DNA of 64,000 nt from contig JBAZLK010000001.1 of NCBI GenBank assembly GCA_041650335.1, forward strand, positions 228,940 to 292,939, written 5' to 3'. The notes under the pieces were generated by a model. It ran no database searches, was not told where the DNA came from, and worked only from the letters and a program-made list of their open reading frames with translations. Source of the DNA: Patescibacteria group bacterium (GTDB taxonomy: Bacteria > Patescibacteriota > Patescibacteriia > JAHIZJ01). Shown in pieces: positions 12,926 through 58,341 of this stretch; position 1 is the stretch's first letter, and each line of letters starts with the position of its first letter. Both the position numbers and the translations under genes were made by a program.

Positions 12926-13208
12926 CGGCCTGGTCAGCTGGCTCCTCTATACAAAATTTCACCAACAGACGGAATTTGTGCCTCTCCATTATAACATTTA
13001 TTTCGGCATCGATCTATATGGACCGTGGTACCAAATACTCACCCTGCCGGCCACCGGCCTCGGCCTTCTCTTTATTAATTTTATCCTTTCTTTTATACTA
13101 TATAAACGGGTCAAGCTGTTCAGCTACGCCTTGCTGATCAGCCTAGATCTGTGCGGTCTCATGTTACTTGGTTCCGGCTGGCTCATTGTCAGCCAGTTGC
13201 TTACCTAA
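12855..13208 (+). CDS. Hypothetical small membrane protein
   Basis: 3 TM helices; divergent from the GT39 gene. The start was chosen at an internal Met to avoid overlapping the divergent gene; the ORF extends to 12810 from a TTG. Confidence 0.4.
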   Translation: MGRFRDFITDRIVLVTVSLALILTGLVSWLLYTKFHQQTEFVPLHYNIYFGIDLYGPWYQILTLPATGLGLLFINFILSFILYKRVKLFSYALLISLDLCGLMLLGSGWLIVSQLLT

Positions 13209-13217
13209 CGAAAATCG

Positions 13218-14270
13218 ATGAACATCGCCCAGGATTATCAAATAATAAAAATATTTTCGCTCACCGTCTTGTCGTTCGTTGTGACGATTCTGTGGACTCC
13301 GGCCCTGACCCATTTTTTGTACAAATACAAGCTGGGCAAAAAAATACGCGACGACAAATCAGCGCCGATATTTTCGAGTCTCCATCAAAAGAAATCAGGC
13401 ACACCCGTCATGGGCGGGCTCTTGATTTGGGTAACGACGTTTGCGCTCGCGGTACTCATCTACTATTTGGGCAAGTTCAGCGGTCTGGAGTTTTTTCAGA
13501 AGCTGAATTTTCTGACCCGTTCGGGCACGCTTCTGCCGTTGGGCGCGCTGGTGGCGACCGCGCTTGTCGGTCTGGTCGATGATGTATTGAATGTCCGCGG
13601 CATCGGTCCCTACGGCGGCGGCCTGAAAATCCGCCACCGCCTTTTGATCTATACGGCCATCGCCGCAGTCGGGGCGTATTGGTTTTATTTCAAACTCGAT
13701 TGGGATGTTTTGCATGTTCCGTTTCTCGGCAACTACTCCATCGGCTGGTGGTATATCCCGATCTTTATTTTTGTGATCGTCGCCACCTCGTTTTCCGTGA
13801 ATGAAATTGACGGCTTGGATGGATTGTCGGGCGGAACGTTGTTGGCCGCGTTCGTCGTGTATTCTGTGATTGCCTACGCGCAAGGCCGGTACGAACTGGC
13901 CACCTTCTGCGGGGTGATTGTCGGCGCCCTGTTCGCATTTCTCTGGTTCAATATACCGCCGGCCCGGTTCTTCATGGGCGATACCGGCGCGATGGCGCTC
14001 GGCACGACCCTCGGCGTGGTGGCCATGCTGACGAATACCGCCTTGGTGCTGCCCGTGATCGGCCTGCTCTTCGTGATCGAGTCGCTATCAGTGATCATTC
14101 AATTATTCAGCCGGAAGTTCCTCAAGCGCAAAATATTTCTCTCAGCGCCAATCCATCACCACCTCGAAGCGATCGGTTGGCCGGAAACGAAGATCGTCAT
14201 GCGCTTCTGGGTCATTTCAGCCGTTTCCGCAGTCGCCGGATTGATTATCATTTTGATCGATAAGACTTAA
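13218..14270 (+). CDS. mraY: Phospho-N-acetylmuramoyl-pentapeptide transferase
   Basis: DDVLNVRGIGPYGGGLK, NEIDGLDGLSGG, FMGDTGAMALG and HHHLE are MraY motifs; 350 aa. Confidence 0.9.
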   Translation: MNIAQDYQIIKIFSLTVLSFVVTILWTPALTHFLYKYKLGKKIRDDKSAPIFSSLHQKKSGTPVMGGLLIWVTTFALAVLIYYLGKFSGLEFFQKLNFLTRSGTLLPLGALVATALVGLVDDVLNVRGIGPYGGGLKIRHRLLIYTAIAAVGAYWFYFKLDWDVLHVPFLGNYSIGWWYIPIFIFVIVATSFSVNEIDGLDGLSGGTLLAAFVVYSVIAYAQGRYELATFCGVIVGALFAFLWFNIPPARFFMGDTGAMALGTTLGVVAMLTNTALVLPVIGLLFVIESLSVIIQLFSRKFLKRKIFLSAPIHHHLEAIGWPETKIVMRFWVISAVSAVAGLIIILIDKT

Positions 14271-14271
14271 A

Positions 14272-14766
14272 ATGTCAGTTAAGAAGTTATTGGTCTTTAT
14301 CGGCAAGCCCGGCGCCGGCAAAACAACCTTAATAAACCAGGCGTTTCCTGATAAAAAGATTATCGATGTCCTGCCCTTTGTGATGTCATTCAAGGTGGCC
14401 GGCAAGGTTCCGGAAGAAAAGACTATAATCGGGTATCGCAACATGTATCGTCATTTGCAGAAGCTCGATGACGATTTTGTTATTTTAGAGCTAGGTACCA
14501 ATCATGCCGATTTTAATGTTGCGGAACTGAAAAAAATAAGCCAGCTGTTTCCGGTTCAGATTTACCTTTGTGTTGCTTCAAACCAGACATTGCGTGAACG
14601 AATACAATCGCGAAATAGGGGCGATGACATGGAAGCCATGGAACGCCGGCTACAGCGCGTTTTTCCGGATGATCACATTACTCTGTTAGAGCGTGCCGGC
14701 CTGAGTTATACCGTCCTCGATATGGAAAAGCCCCTAGCAACACATTCGGCTCTAATTGAGAAATAA
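14272..14766 (+). CDS. P-loop NTPase / predicted small kinase (AAA_33-like)
   Basis: Walker A FIGKPGAGKTTL; 164 aa. Its last ~120 nt are duplicated at 15381-15500. Confidence 0.55.
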   Translation: MSVKKLLVFIGKPGAGKTTLINQAFPDKKIIDVLPFVMSFKVAGKVPEEKTIIGYRNMYRHLQKLDDDFVILELGTNHADFNVAELKKISQLFPVQIYLCVASNQTLRERIQSRNRGDDMEAMERRLQRVFPDDHITLLERAGLSYTVLDMEKPLATHSALIEK

Positions 14767-14783
14767 TAACCTATTCATTATCT

Positions 14784-15137
14784 ATGAAAATAATACGGGC
14801 GGCCGAAAAATCATGGACCGAAAAAAAAGGGTATAGTAAAAAAATACTTCTAACGGAAGAAGATTTACAAACGCCCGGCTCACGCGTTCAATTAATTAAA
14901 ATAAAACCGAAGGAAACAGCAAATAATCACTATCATAAAAAACAAACTGAAATTTCTTATTTTCTGAATAATAACGGATACTACATTATTAATGGAAAAA
15001 AACATCAAATTGAGGCGGGCGACCTCATTGTAATTGAGCCAAATGACAGGCATGAGGTAGTAAACAATAGTGACCATGATTTTGTTTATGTGGTCTATAA
15101 AATAAATTATACGGAAGATGATTTCTATTGGGAGTAA
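14784..15137 (+). CDS. Cupin-domain protein
   Basis: NHYHKKQTEISYFLNN...HQIEAGDLIVIEPNDRHEVVNNSDHDFVYVV matches cupin motifs G(X)5HXH...E...G / PXG...H. AT-rich, ~35% GC. Confidence 0.6.
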   Translation: MKIIRAAEKSWTEKKGYSKKILLTEEDLQTPGSRVQLIKIKPKETANNHYHKKQTEISYFLNNNGYYIINGKKHQIEAGDLIVIEPNDRHEVVNNSDHDFVYVVYKINYTEDDFYWE

Positions 15138-15221
15138 TAGCAATATTGAAAATCGGCCGCTGGAGTTATTTTTTGTAGGCACCGATAGGTAGAAAATATT
15201 ACTAAAACGACTGGCTGTCCC

Positions 15222-15500
15222 ACACAGTTTATTTTTTTTATAGAATTGCGGTATTATGAGATGGATGAAAACGAATTGGAAGGGAAAACGCGTTCTGGTC
15301 ATGGGCTTGGGTTTGCACGGCGGGGGAGTGTCAGTCGCCCGGTTTTTCGCTCGGCAGGGCGCGGCGGTAACAGTTACGGAATAGGGGCGATGATATGGAA
15401 GCGATGGAACGCCGGCTACAGCGCGTTTTTCCGGATGATCACATTACTCTGTTAGAGCGTGCCGGCCTGAGTTATACCGTCCTCGATATGGAAAAGCCAA
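15222..15500 (+). repeat. Junction of a tandem duplication: a copy of the murD promoter plus 5' end (15222-15380, ~88% identical to 16241-16396) fused to a copy of the 3' end of the P-loop kinase gene (15381-15500, ~97% identical to 14614-14737)
   Basis: Direct alignment by eye: cacagtttattttttttatagaattgcggtattatgagatggatgaaaacgaattggaagggaaaacgcg... versus caacagtttatttttttatgaaattggggtatcataatatggatgaaaacgaattgggaaggaaaacgcg...; then ataggggcgatgatatggaagcgatggaacgccggctacagcgcg... versus ataggggcgatgacatggaagccatggaacgccggctacagcgcg... Confidence 0.85.
15265..15384 (+). pseudogene. Truncated murD 5' fragment (39 codons, [39 protein letters not shown]) ending at the duplication junction
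   Basis: Same reading frame and near-identical sequence as the true murD start at 16281; stops at TAG at the junction with the kinase-tail copy, which lies in another frame. Confidence 0.8.
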
Positions 15501-15772
15501 TGTCGGAGATCCGGTCACAGCTCCAGAACTAACAGCAATATCATTTTTCATTTCCGTTTACAGGTGAACCATTTTTTTTATTAAGGGAGGAATTCAGCAA
15601 AAATCATTTATAACCGCATCATCAGCGATGAGGATGATCTTTAGATCGTTCATGTCGTCTATTCTTTGACAGACAGTATTTTTTGTAAAAAAAGCAGATG
15701 GGAGTCACAAACGACCACCATCCGCAGCGTGGCTTAGCAGTACCGTGAGTGGCGCCACCTTGCTACGCCCGA

Positions 15773-16066
15773 TCAGCGGGCAGAACCATCATCGATGCTC
15801 ATGAACGCCGAGACCATAGAGGAGAGAACCTCCGTAGCCTTCGGGTAGCGCCGGAGTAGACGAACGATTGCGGCTGTGATCTCCTCATCTCCGGGCATCC
15901 ACGACCTGATCAGGGTGATCTGCGCCTTGAGCTGTTCCTCGACCACGGCTCTGGCCTCTCCGACCGTGTGAGCCACAACCACATCAATCCGATAGCAGTC
16001 TCCTGTCCCGACGTTCACCCTCGACTTAAGGACAAACAACTTGACCGATTCCGTCTTCCTGGGCAT
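15773..16066 (-). CDS. Hypothetical 97-aa protein on the GC-rich cargo segment between the duplicated flanks
   Basis: ~60% GC; AAGGAGAA RBS 7 nt before ATG; MPRKTESVKLFVLKSRVNVGTGDCYRIDVVVAHTVGEARAVVEEQL...; no family recognised by eye. Confidence 0.5.
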   Translation of the reverse strand: MPRKTESVKLFVLKSRVNVGTGDCYRIDVVVAHTVGEARAVVEEQLKAQITLIRSWMPGDEEITAAIVRLLRRYPKATEVLSSMVSAFMSIDDGSAR

Positions 16067-16280
16067 GTGCGATTTCTCCTTCTCTTGCGGCTAGGCAATC
16101 TATCATAAACATAAAACCCTTGTCAAGGAAAAAAACGCTCGCTCACGTGCTTGGGTTAAATCGTCTAGCGACGTCTTTATGCCGTTACGTTTTGTCTATG
16201 AGCATGCCATACTCATTTCCATAACCACCAACCGTTCGCAACAGTTTATTTTTTTATGAAATTGGGGTATCATAATATGG

Positions 16281-17666
16281 ATGAAAACGAATTGGGAAGG
16301 AAAACGCGTCTTGGTCATGGGCTTGGGTTTGCACGGCGGGGGAGTGTCAGTCGCCCGATTTTTCGCGCGCCAAGGCGCAACGGTCACGGTTACAGATTTG
16401 CGGCCGCAGCGGATTCTCAGGCCATCTTTGGACAAACTTAAGGGCTTGCCAATTCGTTATGTTTTAGGCCGGCATCGAAATGAAGATTTCGCTCAGGCCG
16501 ATCTGGTGATCCAAAACCCCGGCGTGCCGAATAACTCATCCTTTCTCGCAGTGGCCAGAAAGCATGGCGTGCCGATTGAAAATGAAGCCGGATTATTTTT
16601 TACCCAGGCAGCGGGGCGGCTGGTCGGTATCACTGGTACAAAAGGAAAGAGCACGGTCTCGACGCTTGTTTATGAGATATTACGAAAACGGGAGCCTGGC
16701 GCACTCTTGGCGGGCAATATCCGCACAACTGCCATGCTGGATATTATTTGGCGACTGAGCCAGTCGACACCGGTCGTGCTTGAACTGTCGTCCTGGCAGC
16801 TTGAAGGACTGGCGAAGCATCGGATAAGCCCGCCGGTTTCTTTGATCACCAACATTTATCCCGATCACTTGAATCGTTACGGCTCATATCGGTCATACCA
16901 GGAAGCGAAGACAATTATTTTTCGTTATCAAAAACTAAAAGACCTCGTCGTGTTGAATTATGACAATCCGATTACGCGCCACTTCAGTCGGCGGGCGAAA
17001 GGACGCGTGATTTGGTTTTCATTGCAGAATCAAGATAAAGCCACCTGGACCGGCGCGTCCGTTTCCGCTGGGACAATTTGGTATCATGCGCGAAAGCGAA
17101 AAAAGCCGGTGATGACCACGGGGGAAGTCCAATTGCCCGGCCGCCACAATTTGGAAAATGTCGTCGCGGCCGTTGCCCTGACCTCGGCCCTCGGCGTACC
17201 AAGGGAAATTATTCGTTCGGTTGTACGAAAATTCCGGGGCGTTTCCGGCCGACTCGAACATGTACGGACGCTTCACGGGGTGCGGTATATCAATGATACG
17301 ACAGCCACCTCTCCGATCGCGGCGCAGACGGCGCTTACGGCCTTAACCGGTCGCGGTCCGATTATTCTGATCGCCGGCGGCCAGGATAAGAATCTGCCAT
17401 GTCGTGATTTTATACGCACGGTAAATAAAATAGTTGAGGCGGTTGTTCTACTGCCGGGTACAGCCTCAACGAAATTTCTCAGGCATCTTCAGGGGACGTC
17501 GGTTATTCGAGCGAGTTCGATGTCAGTTGCGGTGCGCCAAGCGGCGCGTTTGGCGAAATCTGGAACGCAGGTACTCCTTTCGCCGGGGGCGGCCAGCTTC
17601 AATCTCTTTAAAAACGAGTTTGATCGCGGTGAACAATTTATTAAGGCTGTACGAAAGTTATCGTAA
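16281..17666 (+). CDS. murD: UDP-N-acetylmuramoylalanine--D-glutamate ligase
   Basis: [41 protein letters not shown] is the Rossmann N-terminus; GITGTKGKSTVSTLV; Mur ligase central and C-terminal domains. Confidence 0.9.
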   Translation: MKTNWEGKRVLVMGLGLHGGGVSVARFFARQGATVTVTDLRPQRILRPSLDKLKGLPIRYVLGRHRNEDFAQADLVIQNPGVPNNSSFLAVARKHGVPIENEAGLFFTQAAGRLVGITGTKGKSTVSTLVYEILRKREPGALLAGNIRTTAMLDIIWRLSQSTPVVLELSSWQLEGLAKHRISPPVSLITNIYPDHLNRYGSYRSYQEAKTIIFRYQKLKDLVVLNYDNPITRHFSRRAKGRVIWFSLQNQDKATWTGASVSAGTIWYHARKRKKPVMTTGEVQLPGRHNLENVVAAVALTSALGVPREIIRSVVRKFRGVSGRLEHVRTLHGVRYINDTTATSPIAAQTALTALTGRGPIILIAGGQDKNLPCRDFIRTVNKIVEAVVLLPGTASTKFLRHLQGTSVIRASSMSVAVRQAARLAKSGTQVLLSPGAASFNLFKNEFDRGEQFIKAVRKLS

Positions 17667-17667
17667 T

Positions 17668-18828
17668 ATGTCGCTACCCGTACGTCGGAGCAATCGAATC
17701 GTCTCGCAACGGAATTGGCACGCGCCGGATTACGTTCTGCTTGGCGTGCTTGGCGCTATCGTTGTTATTGGTATTGTGATGCTGTCGTCGGCCAGCACAG
17801 TGGTCGGTTTTGAAGGGTTCAACGATCCAAACTATTACATCAAACACCAGTTGCTCTATGGGATATTGGTCGGCGCGGTTGGGTTTTTTGTAGCCTCACG
17901 GCTTGATTATCATATCTGGGACAAACTCGCGTTTCCACTATTGGTCATGACGATCATCGCGCTCCTCTTGGTGTTCATTCCGGGCATCGGACTGGGTCTG
18001 AAGGGCGCCAATCGTTGGATCAATCTCGGCGCGTTCACGTTTCAACCGGCGGAAATGGCCAAGCTGACCTTTTTGTTGTATCTCTCGAGCTGGCTCCAAA
18101 AGCGAGGTGGCGGCATAAAAAGTTTTTCCTATGGGTTTCTTCCATTCGTCGTGATTTTGAGCGTCTTGGCTGGCTTGATCATTCTCGAACCGGATTTCAG
18201 CACGATGCTGGTGCTGGTCTTCATGTCGGTAGCAGTATTCTTTGTCGCCGGCGCGAACCTTGTCCATATGTCGTGGTTTGGCGCCATCGGTGCCGGCTTA
18301 TTTTTACTGATCATCAAAATCGCCCCCTATCGGGCGGCGCGTTTCACCGTCTTTCTTCACCCGGAAATGGATCCGCAAGGGATCGGCTATCATATCAATC
18401 AAGCGCTTTTGGCGATCGGATCGGGCGGTCTTTTCGGATTAGGACTGGGTCATTCCCGCCAAAAATATAATTATCTCCCAGAGGCGCACAGCGATTCAAT
18501 CTTCGCGATTATCTCTGAGGAGCTCGGTTTTATCTTTTCCGTGGTCTTAATCAGTCTCTATCTATTTTTAATGGTCCGGGGTTTTCGGATTGCCCGGCGC
18601 GCCCCTGATAATTTTGGGAAATATATTGCCGTCGGAATTACGATTTGGATCACCTTTCAAGCGGTTTTCAATATCGCCGCCATGGTCGGAGTCGTGCCGA
18701 TCTCAGGCATACCACTGCCATTCATCAGCCACGGCAGTACGGCCGTAGCGTTTTCACTTATTGGTATGGGCATATTAGCAAACATATCAAAACAAACGGT
18801 TACCGCGCCAGCGCCCGAGCGACGGTAA
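17668..18828 (+). CDS. ftsW: SEDS-family peptidoglycan glycosyltransferase FtsW/RodA
   Basis: ATG 2 nt after the murD stop; RSNRIVSQRNWHAPDYVLLGVLGAIVVIGIVML..., ~10 TM helices, PEAHSDSIFAIISEELGF (SEDS motif). The ORF as listed from 17434 overlaps murD. Confidence 0.85.
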   Translation: MSLPVRRSNRIVSQRNWHAPDYVLLGVLGAIVVIGIVMLSSASTVVGFEGFNDPNYYIKHQLLYGILVGAVGFFVASRLDYHIWDKLAFPLLVMTIIALLLVFIPGIGLGLKGANRWINLGAFTFQPAEMAKLTFLLYLSSWLQKRGGGIKSFSYGFLPFVVILSVLAGLIILEPDFSTMLVLVFMSVAVFFVAGANLVHMSWFGAIGAGLFLLIIKIAPYRAARFTVFLHPEMDPQGIGYHINQALLAIGSGGLFGLGLGHSRQKYNYLPEAHSDSIFAIISEELGFIFSVVLISLYLFLMVRGFRIARRAPDNFGKYIAVGITIWITFQAVFNIAAMVGVVPISGIPLPFISHGSTAVAFSLIGMGILANISKQTVTAPAPERR

Positions 18829-22256: not shown

Positions 22257-24731
22257 TTATGGTTGGCCGAGGCAGAGGATCGGATCGGTGCAGGTAAACG
22301 ACGGTTTGCTGGTCAGCGGCCCGGCGTTCGTAATGCACTCCGAAGCGGTGTCGTAGCTTTTTAGCGCGGTGTCAACGTCGCTTGTAAGATTCGCCGTGCC
22401 CTCTGAGAAAGAAGCGAGGAGATAATTCGTCCCATTATCGCAATAGATGAAACAGTCCTGGTATGATGTATTGGCAAACGGATCTCCGCTCGAGGCCTTG
22501 ACCGTGCAGCCGAGCTGGGACGTTGGAGAGAGTCCGGCGGCGAGATAGGGCTTGAGTTTTTCTTTGAGGGTCAACCAATTTTTTTCACCCTCAGCGAACG
22601 GTGTGTCACCGGTGTCATTAATATACAGTTCAAGCGCTGATTGAAACGTTCGAAGATGGGCAAGGCGCGCGTTGTCGCGCGTTTTCGGACTGGATGCGGC
22701 AGCGCTGGGAACGATGATAAGCTTGCCTTCGCCGTTTGGATTGTAGCCATTATTTACTTCCTCGCCGTCTTTGTAGCCGTCGGCATCGGTATCGTCTTTC
22801 GCCGGATCCGTGCCATAGAGTTCTTCATCGGCGTTCGTCAGAGCGTCCGTATCATCATCAGCGATTTTATCAGCCGCATCTTTTTCTTTCTGCGCAGCCG
22901 CTTCAAGCGATGAAGAATCAGGCGTGGCTGTGTTTGTGCCATCAATATAATCTATTATGGACCCGTAATCAGGCAGACTCTCGATAGCCCTCATTTGATA
23001 GACGAGCGTGTAGCTGTCTTTTTTTACAGCGTAGGGGTACGGTTTATCTGTATAGACATCGGTTAAAGTAAGATTACTGTTTATATAATTGTAACCAACG
23101 CATTCAAACGAATTTGAAGATAACGATGAATTAATTGAATTTATGTTATTTGTATTGCCATTGGTATTTGTGCTCGTATCTTTATTGAGGCATTCGTTAT
23201 AGCTTTCCTCGATCACCGGGGCGACCGCTGAAAGCGTCTCTGGATAGGCGTCCTTTTTGTTTCTGTATAGATAGAGTGCCGTCCGTAGATTTGAAATCTG
23301 TTTCTGCTGTTTCGTTGCAAGTACGGCGGCCTGGCAGTCTTCGGCCGAGATGCCTGAAATCGCGCAGACAGCATCATCAAAAAGTATCGTTTCAGTTTCA
23401 GCCGGAGCCTTTACCGTCATCGGCTGATTGGCGTCTTTTAACGAAGCGGTACCGGTTAGGCGGATCTGCCGGTCTATGAGATTTTCGTTCTGGGAATCAA
23501 GAGCAATTTTGTATGACAGGCTCAGCTTGGTCGGCAGCCAGTCTTTTGTTGAGAGCCAGAGGTCGATGGTTGCGTTATTTTTCAGCTGGTCCGTGAATTG
23601 CCGGAATTTTTCAGAACTGAGATAGGTGGTTGTTTCCTGGTCGATTGATATTTTCAGATCGGGATATTTCTCATTTAAGTATGCCACAAACGCCTGATAC
23701 GTTTCCGCCGTCTTTGTCGCATCGAACCACATCCGCCAGTGTCGTTGCTCGACGTCATTAATCTTTTCGTTTACAAGTTTTTCTTTGATAACAATAAACC
23801 GATGTTCAAGCGCCAAGCGGAGCAGGTCTCTCATTATTTGCTGGCTGGCCGTTTGGTCTAGCGATGGTATGCCGTTCCCTTGCAGAATAGTGCTGCCAAG
23901 TTGAAAGTAGGGGAAGTAGGTATCGGTAAACGACGTCTGTTCAATCTTAATCCATTTATTGACAACCTGTTGATATGAAGCACTGAGGTCTACGCCCGGT
24001 ATGGTCGGGAGTTTCGTAACTTTTACATAGGGAACCTGATCGACGACTTTGAATTGGAGGCCTGCTTCAACAGAAAGATCATTCCCCGAATAACTGCCGC
24101 TTAACTCCATTTCACTGTTTGGCGCTGTATCGCTGCTTCCAGTTGTATTGCCGAGACCGGGTAAGAGAAAACCGAGAGCCGGGTTTTTTGTCACATCGGC
24201 GTTCGTAGCGGCGTTCGCGTTGCCAGATTTATTAAACAGACCGGTGAGGAGAAGGGTGAGCGTTGAATCCTTTGGAAAGATCGAGGCGAGCCAGTCTCCG
24301 CTGGATGAACCTTCAAGAGTGAACGGCAGATAAGAATTTCCGTTCTGATTCGTATTTTCATCCGGCTGGAGCAAATTAAAATCAAGCGGCTGTATGCCCG
24401 CCTCTTTTGGTTCATTGGCGATGACGAGATCGTATTGATAGCGGCCGGAATTTATGGCGAGCAGGCTATCAAGCGCCTGGGAGAGATTTTTTTCCTGATA
24501 CTCTTCAATGACTGACGATGTTATGAACGGCAATTTAAAGGGGAGGGCGATATACCCTTTGGTTGAGGCGAAGACGGCGCCGGCGCCAAGCACGATCAGT
24601 ACGGCGAACCCGATCAAGACGTATAAAAAAATCCGCTTCCGATTTGTGGGGGCGGTTGATTTTATCTTTGGTAGGGAAGTATGCAAAGCAGACGGAGGGA
24701 CAACAACGTGCGACTGTGTTGCGTTTTCCAT
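22257..24731 (-). CDS. Large (824 aa) membrane-anchored extracellular protein with low-complexity Asn/Ser/Thr linkers, Asp-rich region and a C-terminal pilin-like globular module
   Basis: N-terminal TM (IFLYVLIGFAVLIVLGAGAVFA); NTNGNTNNINSINSSLSSNS; DDTDALTNADEELYGTDPAKDDTDADGYKDGEE. The C-terminal ~150 aa (RDNARLAHLRTFQSALELYINDTGDTP...YLLASFSEG...) resembles the post-helix part of CPR/Gram-positive type IV pilins. Confidence 0.6.
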   Translation of the reverse strand: MENATQSHVVVPPSALHTSLPKIKSTAPTNRKRIFLYVLIGFAVLIVLGAGAVFASTKGYIALPFKLPFITSSVIEEYQEKNLSQALDSLLAINSGRYQYDLVIANEPKEAGIQPLDFNLLQPDENTNQNGNSYLPFTLEGSSSGDWLASIFPKDSTLTLLLTGLFNKSGNANAATNADVTKNPALGFLLPGLGNTTGSSDTAPNSEMELSGSYSGNDLSVEAGLQFKVVDQVPYVKVTKLPTIPGVDLSASYQQVVNKWIKIEQTSFTDTYFPYFQLGSTILQGNGIPSLDQTASQQIMRDLLRLALEHRFIVIKEKLVNEKINDVEQRHWRMWFDATKTAETYQAFVAYLNEKYPDLKISIDQETTTYLSSEKFRQFTDQLKNNATIDLWLSTKDWLPTKLSLSYKIALDSQNENLIDRQIRLTGTASLKDANQPMTVKAPAETETILFDDAVCAISGISAEDCQAAVLATKQQKQISNLRTALYLYRNKKDAYPETLSAVAPVIEESYNECLNKDTSTNTNGNTNNINSINSSLSSNSFECVGYNYINSNLTLTDVYTDKPYPYAVKKDSYTLVYQMRAIESLPDYGSIIDYIDGTNTATPDSSSLEAAAQKEKDAADKIADDDTDALTNADEELYGTDPAKDDTDADGYKDGEEVNNGYNPNGEGKLIIVPSAAASSPKTRDNARLAHLRTFQSALELYINDTGDTPFAEGEKNWLTLKEKLKPYLAAGLSPTSQLGCTVKASSGDPFANTSYQDCFIYCDNGTNYLLASFSEGTANLTSDVDTALKSYDTASECITNAGPLTSKPSFTCTDPILCLGQP

Positions 24732-57795: not shown

Positions 57796-57896
57796 TAACT
57801 TGACATTTTCAGCGGTTATTGTAGGATGTCCATTGTTGTACCCAGGCCGAGGTTTTCGGCCACGACGCACACCCAGACAGGGAGGAGGGTCAGAAC

Positions 57897-58277
57897 ATGG
57901 CCATTCGGGTCGCGACGGTGAAAGCGGTGGACTTCCAGGAGGGCATGACGGCGGAGCAGGTACTGGCGGCGGCCGGCGTGGAGTTCGATCTGGAGACCCA
58001 GCGCCTGGTGAGCGCGAAGGACGGCGAGATCAAGCCGGATGCGATCATCCAGGACGGCGACATCGTCAACGTCGAGCCGATCAGCAAGGGTCCCGCCGAG
58101 ACGGTGATCGACGAGACCGACGCGGGCAAGAAGCCGGGTGCCGAGACGGTGATCGACGAGACCGACGCGGGCAAGAAGCCGGGTGCCGAGACGGTCGTCG
58201 GCGAGGCTGGCGCGGGCGGCGGAGGCGGCGAGGCCGTCCAGGCTGCGGCTGGCGGAGCCGGGGCTGCGAAGGAGTAG
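57897..58277 (+). CDS. GC-rich small protein: beta-grasp-like N-terminal domain plus tandem 15-aa repeats (AETVIDETDAGKKPG x2, one degenerate) and Gly/Ala tail
   Basis: ~66% GC; RBS ggaggagggtcagaacATG; 45 bp unit gccgagacggtgatcgacgagaccgacgcgggcaagaagccgggt perfectly repeated at 58095-58139 and 58140-58184, third copy diverged. The overlapping frame 57800..58324 is Arg-rich nonsense. Confidence 0.55.
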   Translation: MAIRVATVKAVDFQEGMTAEQVLAAAGVEFDLETQRLVSAKDGEIKPDAIIQDGDIVNVEPISKGPAETVIDETDAGKKPGAETVIDETDAGKKPGAETVVGEAGAGGGGGEAVQAAAGGAGAAKE

Positions 58278-58310
58278 CGGCTAGTCGTCTGATCGACGGC
58301 TGGACCGTGG

Positions 58311-58341
58311 CGGGGCTTGTTTGAAGAGCCCCGTTTTTTCT
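58311..58341 (+). terminator. Rho-independent terminator
   Basis: cggggcttgtttgaagagccccgttttttc. Confidence 0.75.

Follow-up and report, generated by a model that had tools for sequence, protein, structure and literature searches.

How can a bacterial chromosome come to carry two unrelated cargo genes side by side, each bracketed by pieces of the same two conserved genes, inside its cell-wall gene cluster? We addressed this question for a 64,000-nucleotide (nt) stretch of DNA (the window) from a Patescibacteria group bacterium (GenBank assembly GCA_041650335.1, contig JBAZLK010000001.1, positions 228,940 to 292,939), which derives from a 363,808-bp MEGAHIT contig (ENA ERZ27247363 k141_1409060). 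Between mraY and murD of its dcw cluster, the window holds an intact P-loop kinase-like gene, a cupin gene, a scar in which a truncated start of murD is fused to the 3' end of a second kinase copy, and a small open reading frame (ORF) on the opposite strand, ORF97, upstream of the live murD (Table 1). In the deposited metagenome-assembled genome (MAG), the corresponding locus tags run from WC497_01245 (kinase) to WC497_01260 (ORF97). We hold with high confidence that the locus is a real junction of two diverged alleles of this interval, connected by an illegitimate joint. As to its origin, we favor, with rather more confidence than doubt, homology-facilitated illegitimate recombination (HFIR), defined by one homologous and one illegitimate end (PMC3240628), by which an ORF97 allele would have been imported into a cupin allele.

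The scar is outlined by two pairs of repeats. Local alignment of kinase-derived repeats A (14611-14732) and A' (15377-15498) gave 119/122 identical positions (97.5%) and no gap, and that of murD-derived repeats C' (15224-15388) and C (16241-16404) gave 142/165 identical positions (86.1%) with a single 1-nt gap; the longest exact shared runs were 95 and 46 nt, respectively. A whole-window repeat search returned these two pairs as the only dispersed repeats of at least 45 nt in 64 kb, which excludes chance. C' and A' abut without a spacer, and the switch from murD-like to kinase-like sequence falls inside the motif CGGA at 15377-15380 (joint-spanning 40-mer, GGCGGTAACAGTTACGGAATAGGGGCGATGATATGGAAGC). 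The extant paralogues share 1-2 nt at this point, or 4 nt if the parents had the synonymous variants seen at the joint. The murD stump comprises 38 codons homologous to murD 16281-16394, followed by GAA and by a TAG stop at 15382-15384 that arises from the joint itself. A called 64-aa ORF across the joint (15261-15455) uses a reading frame other than that of murD and is almost certainly spurious. A preliminary description, prepared from the letters of the window alone, had reported both recurrences, a head-to-tail junction at 15380/15381 and a 39-codon murD pseudogene ending there; self-comparison and local alignment agreed on the recurrences, the junction was placed correctly to within 3 nt, and the pseudogene consists of the 38 homologous codons plus one. 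An illegitimate joint with a few nucleotides of microhomology thus lies at one end of the inserted DNA, as in HFIR; a novel joint from unit end to unit start is also what a simple tandem duplication would leave.

The sequences on either side of the joint are not copies of one parent. Over the 38 codons shared by C' and C, we counted 11 synonymous and 2 non-synonymous changes (dS 0.52, dN 0.024, dN/dS ~0.05), and the binomial probability of at least 11 synonymous changes out of 13 under neutrality is 1.7e-5; C' therefore diverged as a functioning murD elsewhere rather than as a decaying copy of C. A' runs in frame past the repeat into its own stop through a C-terminal segment (tail 2) unlike that of the resident kinase (tail 1). 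Tail 2 resembles the kinase tails of the homologues P0002 (…AELQNHN) and P0004 (PLSEIQQQLVNV), marking A' as the 3' terminus of a second, intact kinase allele. With unrelated tails and cargos added to the dS of 0.52, the copies did not come from the same parental sequence, as a simple tandem duplication would demand. The two alleles of the interval running from the kinase 3' end through the cargo to the murD 5' end, judged from these comparisons, stem from different lineages. The preliminary description had spoken of a tandem duplication of the unit and also of a side-by-side capture of two allelic cassettes; duplication of a single unit with a later change of cargo did not hold, and the allelic reading is supported.

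The two repeat pairs differ in divergence (Fisher p = 6e-4). The three A/A' mismatches (14613, 14628, and 14637), all synonymous in the kinase frame, fall inside the first 27 nt, and the remaining 95 nt are identical, a clustering with a probability of 0.011. This clustering supports gene conversion, which had been suggested earlier as a cause of the unequal divergence; the 95-nt identity is probably best read as gene conversion across 766 bp or as local identity of donor and recipient.

Comparison with relatives defined the interval in which the scar lies. We found 34 homologues of the kinase, all from Patescibacteria. The closest (P0002; 82% identity) represents lineage K, present on 23 contigs from many samples, and every contig long enough to show the arrangement has a single mraY-kinase-cupin-murD order. 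The cupin in the window has 67.5% amino acid identity to the same-position cupin in lineage K contigs (L004-L012), making this cargo common to the closest relative. In lineages at 66-69% kinase identity the order is kinase-Y1 transposase-murD, in a lineage at 57% it is kinase-NUDIX-RAYT-hydrolase, and more distant kinase homologues are located outside the dcw cluster. The Y1 gene was identified as a repetitive extragenic palindrome-associated tyrosine transposase (RAYT; NCBIfam REP_Tyr_transpos, 132 bits against a cutoff of 80). What had been taken for a normally invariant mraY-murD junction is thus occupied by a conserved kinase directly after mraY and then by a slot of varying content (a cupin, a RAYT, or other genes), and the right border of this kinase-to-murD slot is sharp. 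That border is a conserved element upstream of murD (ACAGTTTATTTTTTTAT…TAT(C/A)AT, ending TATCAT in repeat C) that lies ~40 nt before the murD ATG; its first base is the same in all lineages and in the two copies within the window. The element probably serves as the murD promoter, and insertions upstream of it would be tolerated because murD carries this element of its own. If the C' copy is still active, transcription from it would run antisense to ORF97.

Two observations on the relatives are recorded here. RAYT genes occupy the slot in three relative lineages (L013:5701-6081, L015:5587-6084, and L022:4982-5533), those of L015 and L022 sharing 46% amino acid identity, and the position-conserved RAYT appears to be a domesticated gene resident in the slot and not a recent arrival. 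On two lineage K contigs (L006:2443-4165 and L008:1450-2546), mraY is split or replaced by ORFs without Pfam assignment, and one of the two contigs has a shortened cupin of 73 aa; these anomalies are probably frameshift errors at 3-4x coverage.

Lineage K also provides a reference for the direction of transfer. The live murD is near-identical to K until ~16580 and ~76% identical beyond, with 14 mismatches in 16241-16579 (339 nt) and 44 in 16580-16759 (180 nt). The dS against K is 0.23 for repeat C, 0.046 for murD codons 39-98, and 0.88 for codons 99-200. C' differs from K with a dS of 0.48, matching the window-K background of 0.51 in mraY, and a three-way murD alignment with K assigned ~16 unique changes to C', 4 to C, and 5 to K. 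By these distances, C' looks like the native murD start, and C, with the sequence on to ~16580, appears to have been imported recently from a K-like source. The abrupt change in K-similarity near 16580 has the character of the homologous anchor expected in HFIR; that this breakpoint and the insertion belong to one event is something we infer. A circular-intermediate (Campbell) model was considered and rejected; it predicts native murD past codon 39, and the K-like tract to ~16580 does not fit.

Similar patches occur along the window in comparison with L004. Identity reaches 93-98% at 12927-13276, 16241-16580, 17923-18072, and 18323-18472, over a background of 61-90%, a mosaic suggesting that these Patescibacteria species often exchange short tracts by homologous recombination.

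Among single events, HFIR is the simplest that produces every part of the locus. Under this reading, the native allele would have been kinase-cupin-murD, the arrangement of the nearest relative known. A linear DNA of ~1.2 kb (window 15381 to ~16580) would have come from a related strain with the ORF97 cassette in the slot, most plausibly by natural transformation, bringing in order the kinase 3' end (A') with tail 2, a spacer, the ORF97 cassette, a second spacer, and C with murD codons 1 to ~100. Its right end would have entered by a homologous crossover inside murD near 16580. At its left end the kinase homology would have gone unused, the DNA being joined instead to recipient murD codon 39 by an illegitimate event with at most 4 nt of microhomology (CGGA). 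Recipient murD codons 40 to ~100 would thereby have been replaced, and codons 1-39 with their upstream element stranded as C'; murD would have kept its function, the imported DNA having supplied both an upstream element and a murD 5' end. The old cupin would have been retained, making the outcome additive. Later gene conversion between the kinase repeats, 766 bp apart, probably homogenized their last 95 nt. The product would be metastable: a crossover joining A to A' would delete 766 bp and keep just the ORF97 allele, and one joining C' to C would delete 1017 bp and return the locus to the cupin allele. A type IV pilus cluster (PilM, pilin, PilC, and PilB) at ~2.9-10.3 kb of the window, upstream of the scar, is compatible with uptake by transformation. 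Patescibacteria commonly carry com genes and type IV pili, and competence has been demonstrated only for Saccharibacteria, which integrate DNA taken up by natural transformation through homologous recombination (PMC10633639).

Several points weigh against this account. K-like patches elsewhere (12927-13276 and 17923-18072) mean that the tract at 16241-16580 may stem from an unrelated exchange, with a probability of ~1 in 10 that it adjoins the insertion by chance. The kinase part of the supposed donor is window-like rather than K-like, yet its murD part is K-like, which requires an unobserved third, mosaic lineage. Of the two single-cargo arrangements that the preliminary description had proposed to seek in related genomes, the cupin alone is found in lineage K, and a contig with kinase-ORF97-murD alone was not found. 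The 95-nt exact identity of A and A' demands an additional step, be it gene conversion or a donor and recipient that happened to be identical here. Competence of the host organism is also inferred. Lastly, the structure is present in one assembly only, as MEGAHIT contig k141_1409060 and an apparent copy in the deposited MAG.

Since the topology is that of a tandem duplication, we weighed an account that begins with one. A ~1-kb unit comprising the kinase 3' end, cupin, and murD 5' end would have been duplicated in situ by illegitimate sister-strand exchange, after which a donor with the ORF97 allele would have replaced the interior of the second copy and the murD 5' end through two homologous arms. 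Merodiploids are known to form in transformation (PMC3784515), and the breakpoint near 16580 would be the right crossover. However, at least two rare events are required, and A' is predicted to be identical to A close to the joint and to show donor differences near the tail, the opposite of the three differences seen in its first 27 nt. We consider this order of events unlikely. HFIR in the mirror-image direction would yield the same product because the final structure is symmetrical: a native kinase-ORF97-murD chromosome would have received a fragment reaching from the upstream kinase through tail 1 and the cupin to murD codons 1-39, anchored on the left in the kinase or mraY and joined illegitimately on the right at kinase codon 114. 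The cupin region does diverge more from K (61-75% at the nucleotide level) than its neighbors, but C', here the donor sequence, stands at background divergence from K, while C, here native, is K-like to ~16580, so that a separate and coincidental adjacent exchange would be needed. In addition, the cupin arrangement is common to the nearest lineage, and a left-hand breakpoint is not visible in the kinase or mraY. Import in this direction is, in our estimation, distinctly improbable.

We further considered an assembly artefact, in which MEGAHIT would have fused sequences of two strains living together or followed a chimeric read path through its graph. The sequence comes from a single metagenome assembly, the joint was found on no independent contig, and two strain alleles in one sample are plausible. 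Against this, the longest exact repeat runs (95 and 46 nt) are below the final k of 141, and the C'-A' joint is novel with an overlap of at most 4 nt, which a de Bruijn graph cannot make without reads containing it. If strains were mixed at the 95-nt repeat, alleles would be exchanged and not strung together, and both fragments are in-frame, undecayed gene ends, as for a recent biological event. An artefact therefore appears very unlikely.

The inserted DNA is foreign to the slot: the ORF97 cassette is absent from it in all relatives and present in four other, unrelated contexts. The segment had been described as a 738-bp block of ~60% GC, which was an overstatement; the interior (15499-16240) has 49% GC overall and ORF97 alone 57.5%, and the AT-rich composition claimed for the cupin was borne out by measurement. 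At codon positions 1/2/3, the GC content of ORF97 is 0.57/0.44/0.71, much like mraY and indicative of a normal coding pattern. Its predicted promoter on the minus strand (16126-16097) is sigma-70-like, matching at 10/12 positions, with an extended -10 box. A word-indexed search returned no relative of ORF97; an exhaustive HMMER search found the family, and a profile search added one member. Its homologues are P0037, P0038, P0039, and P0041 (41-53% identity, 98 aa) and P0036 (79% over 56 aa). In L028 the cassette lies beside a Fic gene, the ORF97 homologue there having 60% GC and its flanks 42-44%; in L029 it lies between khpA and trmD; and a 513-bp contig (L030) has 83.7% nucleotide identity exactly over window 16136-15685, with different flanks. 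A four-way alignment showed that homology of the cassette extends from the -35 box to the terminator U-run. Flanking duplications were found at neither L028 nor L029, so cassette insertion does not in itself leave such a scar.

ORF97 gave nothing significant against Pfam, NCBIfam, PADLOC, PHROGs, or PDB sequences, and no match in IMG/VR by protein pattern or terminator motif. An AlphaFold2 (AF2) model with a predicted local distance difference test score (pLDDT) of 76 showed a beta-beta-alpha-beta plus two-helix topology with no informative fold match; a single-sequence AF2 model had a pLDDT of 62, and its Foldseek search against PDB was empty. Both spacers flanking the cassette (15533-15684 and 16137-16240) showed no similarity to the fetched loci or the rest of the window. 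We also noted three smaller features of the cassette and its surroundings. The hairpin in the 3' untranslated region (3'UTR), upstream of the terminator (window 15726-15769; L028:8007-8054; L030:423-466), is conserved in sequence and fold in 3/4 copies, with z-scores of -2 to -3. In L030:126-296 and onward, an in-frame TAG stands where the window has ATG (…SW-stop-PGDEE…) and the frame is conserved afterwards; recent pseudogenization, stop recoding, or an error in sequencing could account for it. The left spacer contains a 19-codon ORF (MNDLKIILIADDAVINDFC, followed by a stop; 15597-15653, minus strand) that has no partner elsewhere in the window; its translation resembles the N-terminal part of a response-regulator receiver domain, and the ORF may be a further gene stump brought by the donor.

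Marks of a mobile element were sought at the locus. As the preliminary description had stated, local ORFs encode no integrase or transposase; nor did tblastn detect Y1 or RAYT remnants in the window, or the repeat search inverted repeats at the scar borders, and the 122- and ~160-nt repeats belong to different genes, in disagreement with a transposon or insertion sequence (IS). For an integron cassette, an integrase is missing from the neighborhood, and the 3' hairpin with its U-run behaves as a predicted intrinsic terminator. For a phage moron, the architecture of the unit fits, but there is no IMG/VR match and the flanks are housekeeping genes. An Rfam scan of 14000-16600 gave chance-level matches only, and no tRNA was found at the locus. 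That the ORF97 cassette is autonomous or recombinase-mobilized (integron-like, an IS200/IS605 passenger, or RAYT-mobilized) and made the flanking duplications on insertion could draw on its sharp, conserved boundaries in five contexts including the window, on the RAYT in the very same slot of relatives, and on the sequence-conserved terminal hairpin, but is scarcely credible, as the duplicated flanks differ from each other, come from opposite sides and are not target-site duplications, the copies in L028 and L029 lack them, no transposase or integrase gene or remnant was found in the window, and ~150 nt and ~100 nt of non-cassette spacer separate the cassette from the repeats.

Table 1. Features of the mraY-murD interval, in window coordinates
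Feature	Position	Strand	Basis or remark
mraY	13218..14270	+	Left conserved neighbor; Pfam Glycos_transf_4, 1.4e-32; syntenic in relatives
P-loop kinase-like gene, 164 aa	14272..14766	+	Intact resident copy; AAA_33, 9.5e-07
Repeat A, kinase codons 114-153	14611..14732	+	119/122 identical to 15377-15498
Tail 1, resident kinase C-terminus (PLATHSALIEK, stop)	14733..14766	+	Sequence unrelated to tail 2
Cupin gene, 117 aa, 32.8% GC	14784..15137	+	Cupin_2, 4.3e-13
Repeat C', murD upstream element and murD codons 1-38, truncated	15224..15380	+	86% identical to 16241-16404
Illegitimate joint CGGA	15377..15380	none	Microhomology at most 4 nt; sequence reading and three-way alignments
Repeat A', 3' fragment of second kinase allele	15377..15498	+	Three differences from A
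Tail 2, alternative kinase C-terminus (PMSEIRSQLQN, stop), intact	15499..15532	+	In frame with A'
Left spacer of cassette	15533..15684	none	Similarity comparison
ORF97 cassette, promoter-to-terminator unit, 452 bp	15685..16136	-	Promoter scan, RNA folds, alignments
Terminator hairpin, then U-run	15725-15694, then 15693-15687	-	RNA fold; predicted intrinsic terminator
3'UTR hairpin	15769-15726	-	RNA fold
ORF97, 97-aa small protein	15773..16066	-	Family homologues P0036-P0039, P0041
Ribosome-binding site (RBS) AGAAGGAGA	16083-16075	-	8 nt from ATG
-10 box TAGATT	16102-16097	-	Promoter scan
-35 box TTGACA	16126-16121	-	Promoter scan
Right spacer of cassette	16137..16240	none	Similarity comparison
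Repeat C, murD upstream element and first codons, live murD	16241..16404	+	Alignment with C'
Tract near-identical to lineage K, abrupt end	16241..16580	+	Mismatch counts, dS
murD, intact, 461 aa	16281..17666	+	MurD-like_N, Mur_ligase_M, Mur_ligase_C

On the plus strand, the order of the neighborhood is mraY, kinase, cupin, scar, ORF97 (on the minus strand), murD, ftsW, murG, and murC. The kinase family is specific to Patescibacteria, and its start codon is located 1 nt downstream of the mraY stop codon. Its members are weakly similar to guanylate kinase and AAA_33, and some of them to Zeta-toxin-type kinases; invariant residues include GK(x3)GK(T/S)T, E73, H78, N82, and R110/R114 (alignment A1). 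A part in handling cell-wall precursors may be suspected from its location in the dcw cluster. Elsewhere in the window, the mur genes are immediately followed by an 824-aa ORF (22257-24731, minus strand) that matched nothing in Pfam at E <= 1e-5, and the ORF at 57800-58324 contains three or four 45-nt units in tandem (58095-58229; two units identical) that would encode a 15-aa repeat.

If reads confirm the joint, the locus would record, cleanly and in nature, how an uncultivated member of the Patescibacteria gained a gene by addition through one homologous and one illegitimate crossover, and would support DNA uptake plus host recombination, rather than mobile-element enzymes, as a means of moving small genes in reduced genomes. 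It also points to a tolerated insertion slot inside a cell-wall gene cluster, which could serve as a neutral site for genetics in relatives, and defines a tiny orphan gene family with its own predicted promoter and terminator. A further proposal, which we offer as speculative and rather unlikely, is that the slot is a recombinase-free cassette-exchange site whose conserved borders act as homology arms for swapping the cupin, RAYT, and ORF97 among strains. The window would then show a transient 'heterozygous' intermediate that RecA could resolve to either allele, a population-level switch or form of bet-hedging, and the 452-bp ORF97 unit would be a minimal mobile cassette spread only by transformation and host recombination.

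Products of HFIR are known in the naturally transformable Streptococcus pneumoniae, Acinetobacter baylyi, and Pseudomonas stutzeri (PMC3240628). Like the scar described here, they combine a homologous anchor with an illegitimate microhomology joint, add non-homologous DNA, replace the recipient DNA in between, and involve no recombinase gene. The present case differs in being deduced from sequence, in uncultivated Patescibacteria, and in that the incoming piece is homologous at both ends yet joined illegitimately on the left, and therefore stumps of both flanking genes were duplicated and the old cargo was kept. Additive displacement, for which HFIR has been proposed, is also known from the Vibrio cholerae type VI secretion system (T6SS) effector-immunity arrays and the orphan arrays of Rhs and contact-dependent inhibition (CDI) systems (PMC5361080). 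There, as here, new modules are placed beside old ones in a slot with conserved bounds, old modules and conserved-gene fragments remain, and the alleles come from different strains. Our locus, by contrast, lacks toxin-immunity logic, has only two modules, and lies in the dcw cluster of cell-wall genes.

Transformation merodiploids and tandem duplications (PMC3784515), together with single-crossover Campbell merodiploids, share the layout in which arm, allele 1, and arm are followed by arm, allele 2, and arm, resolvable through either pair of direct repeats. They use long repeats or a circular vector and identical sequence, whereas the unit here is heteroallelic, ~1 kb long, free of a vector, and closed by a microhomology joint. 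Phage morons and other self-contained insertions resemble the ORF97 unit in having their own -35 and -10 boxes, a strong RBS, and an intrinsic terminator (predicted in our case), in lying between conserved genes in several genomes, and in a foreign GC content, seen for ORF97 in L028; unlike morons, the ORF97 unit was not found in viral contigs and has no prophage context. Taken against these systems, the scar is a known kind of recombination footprint in a new host and a new place.

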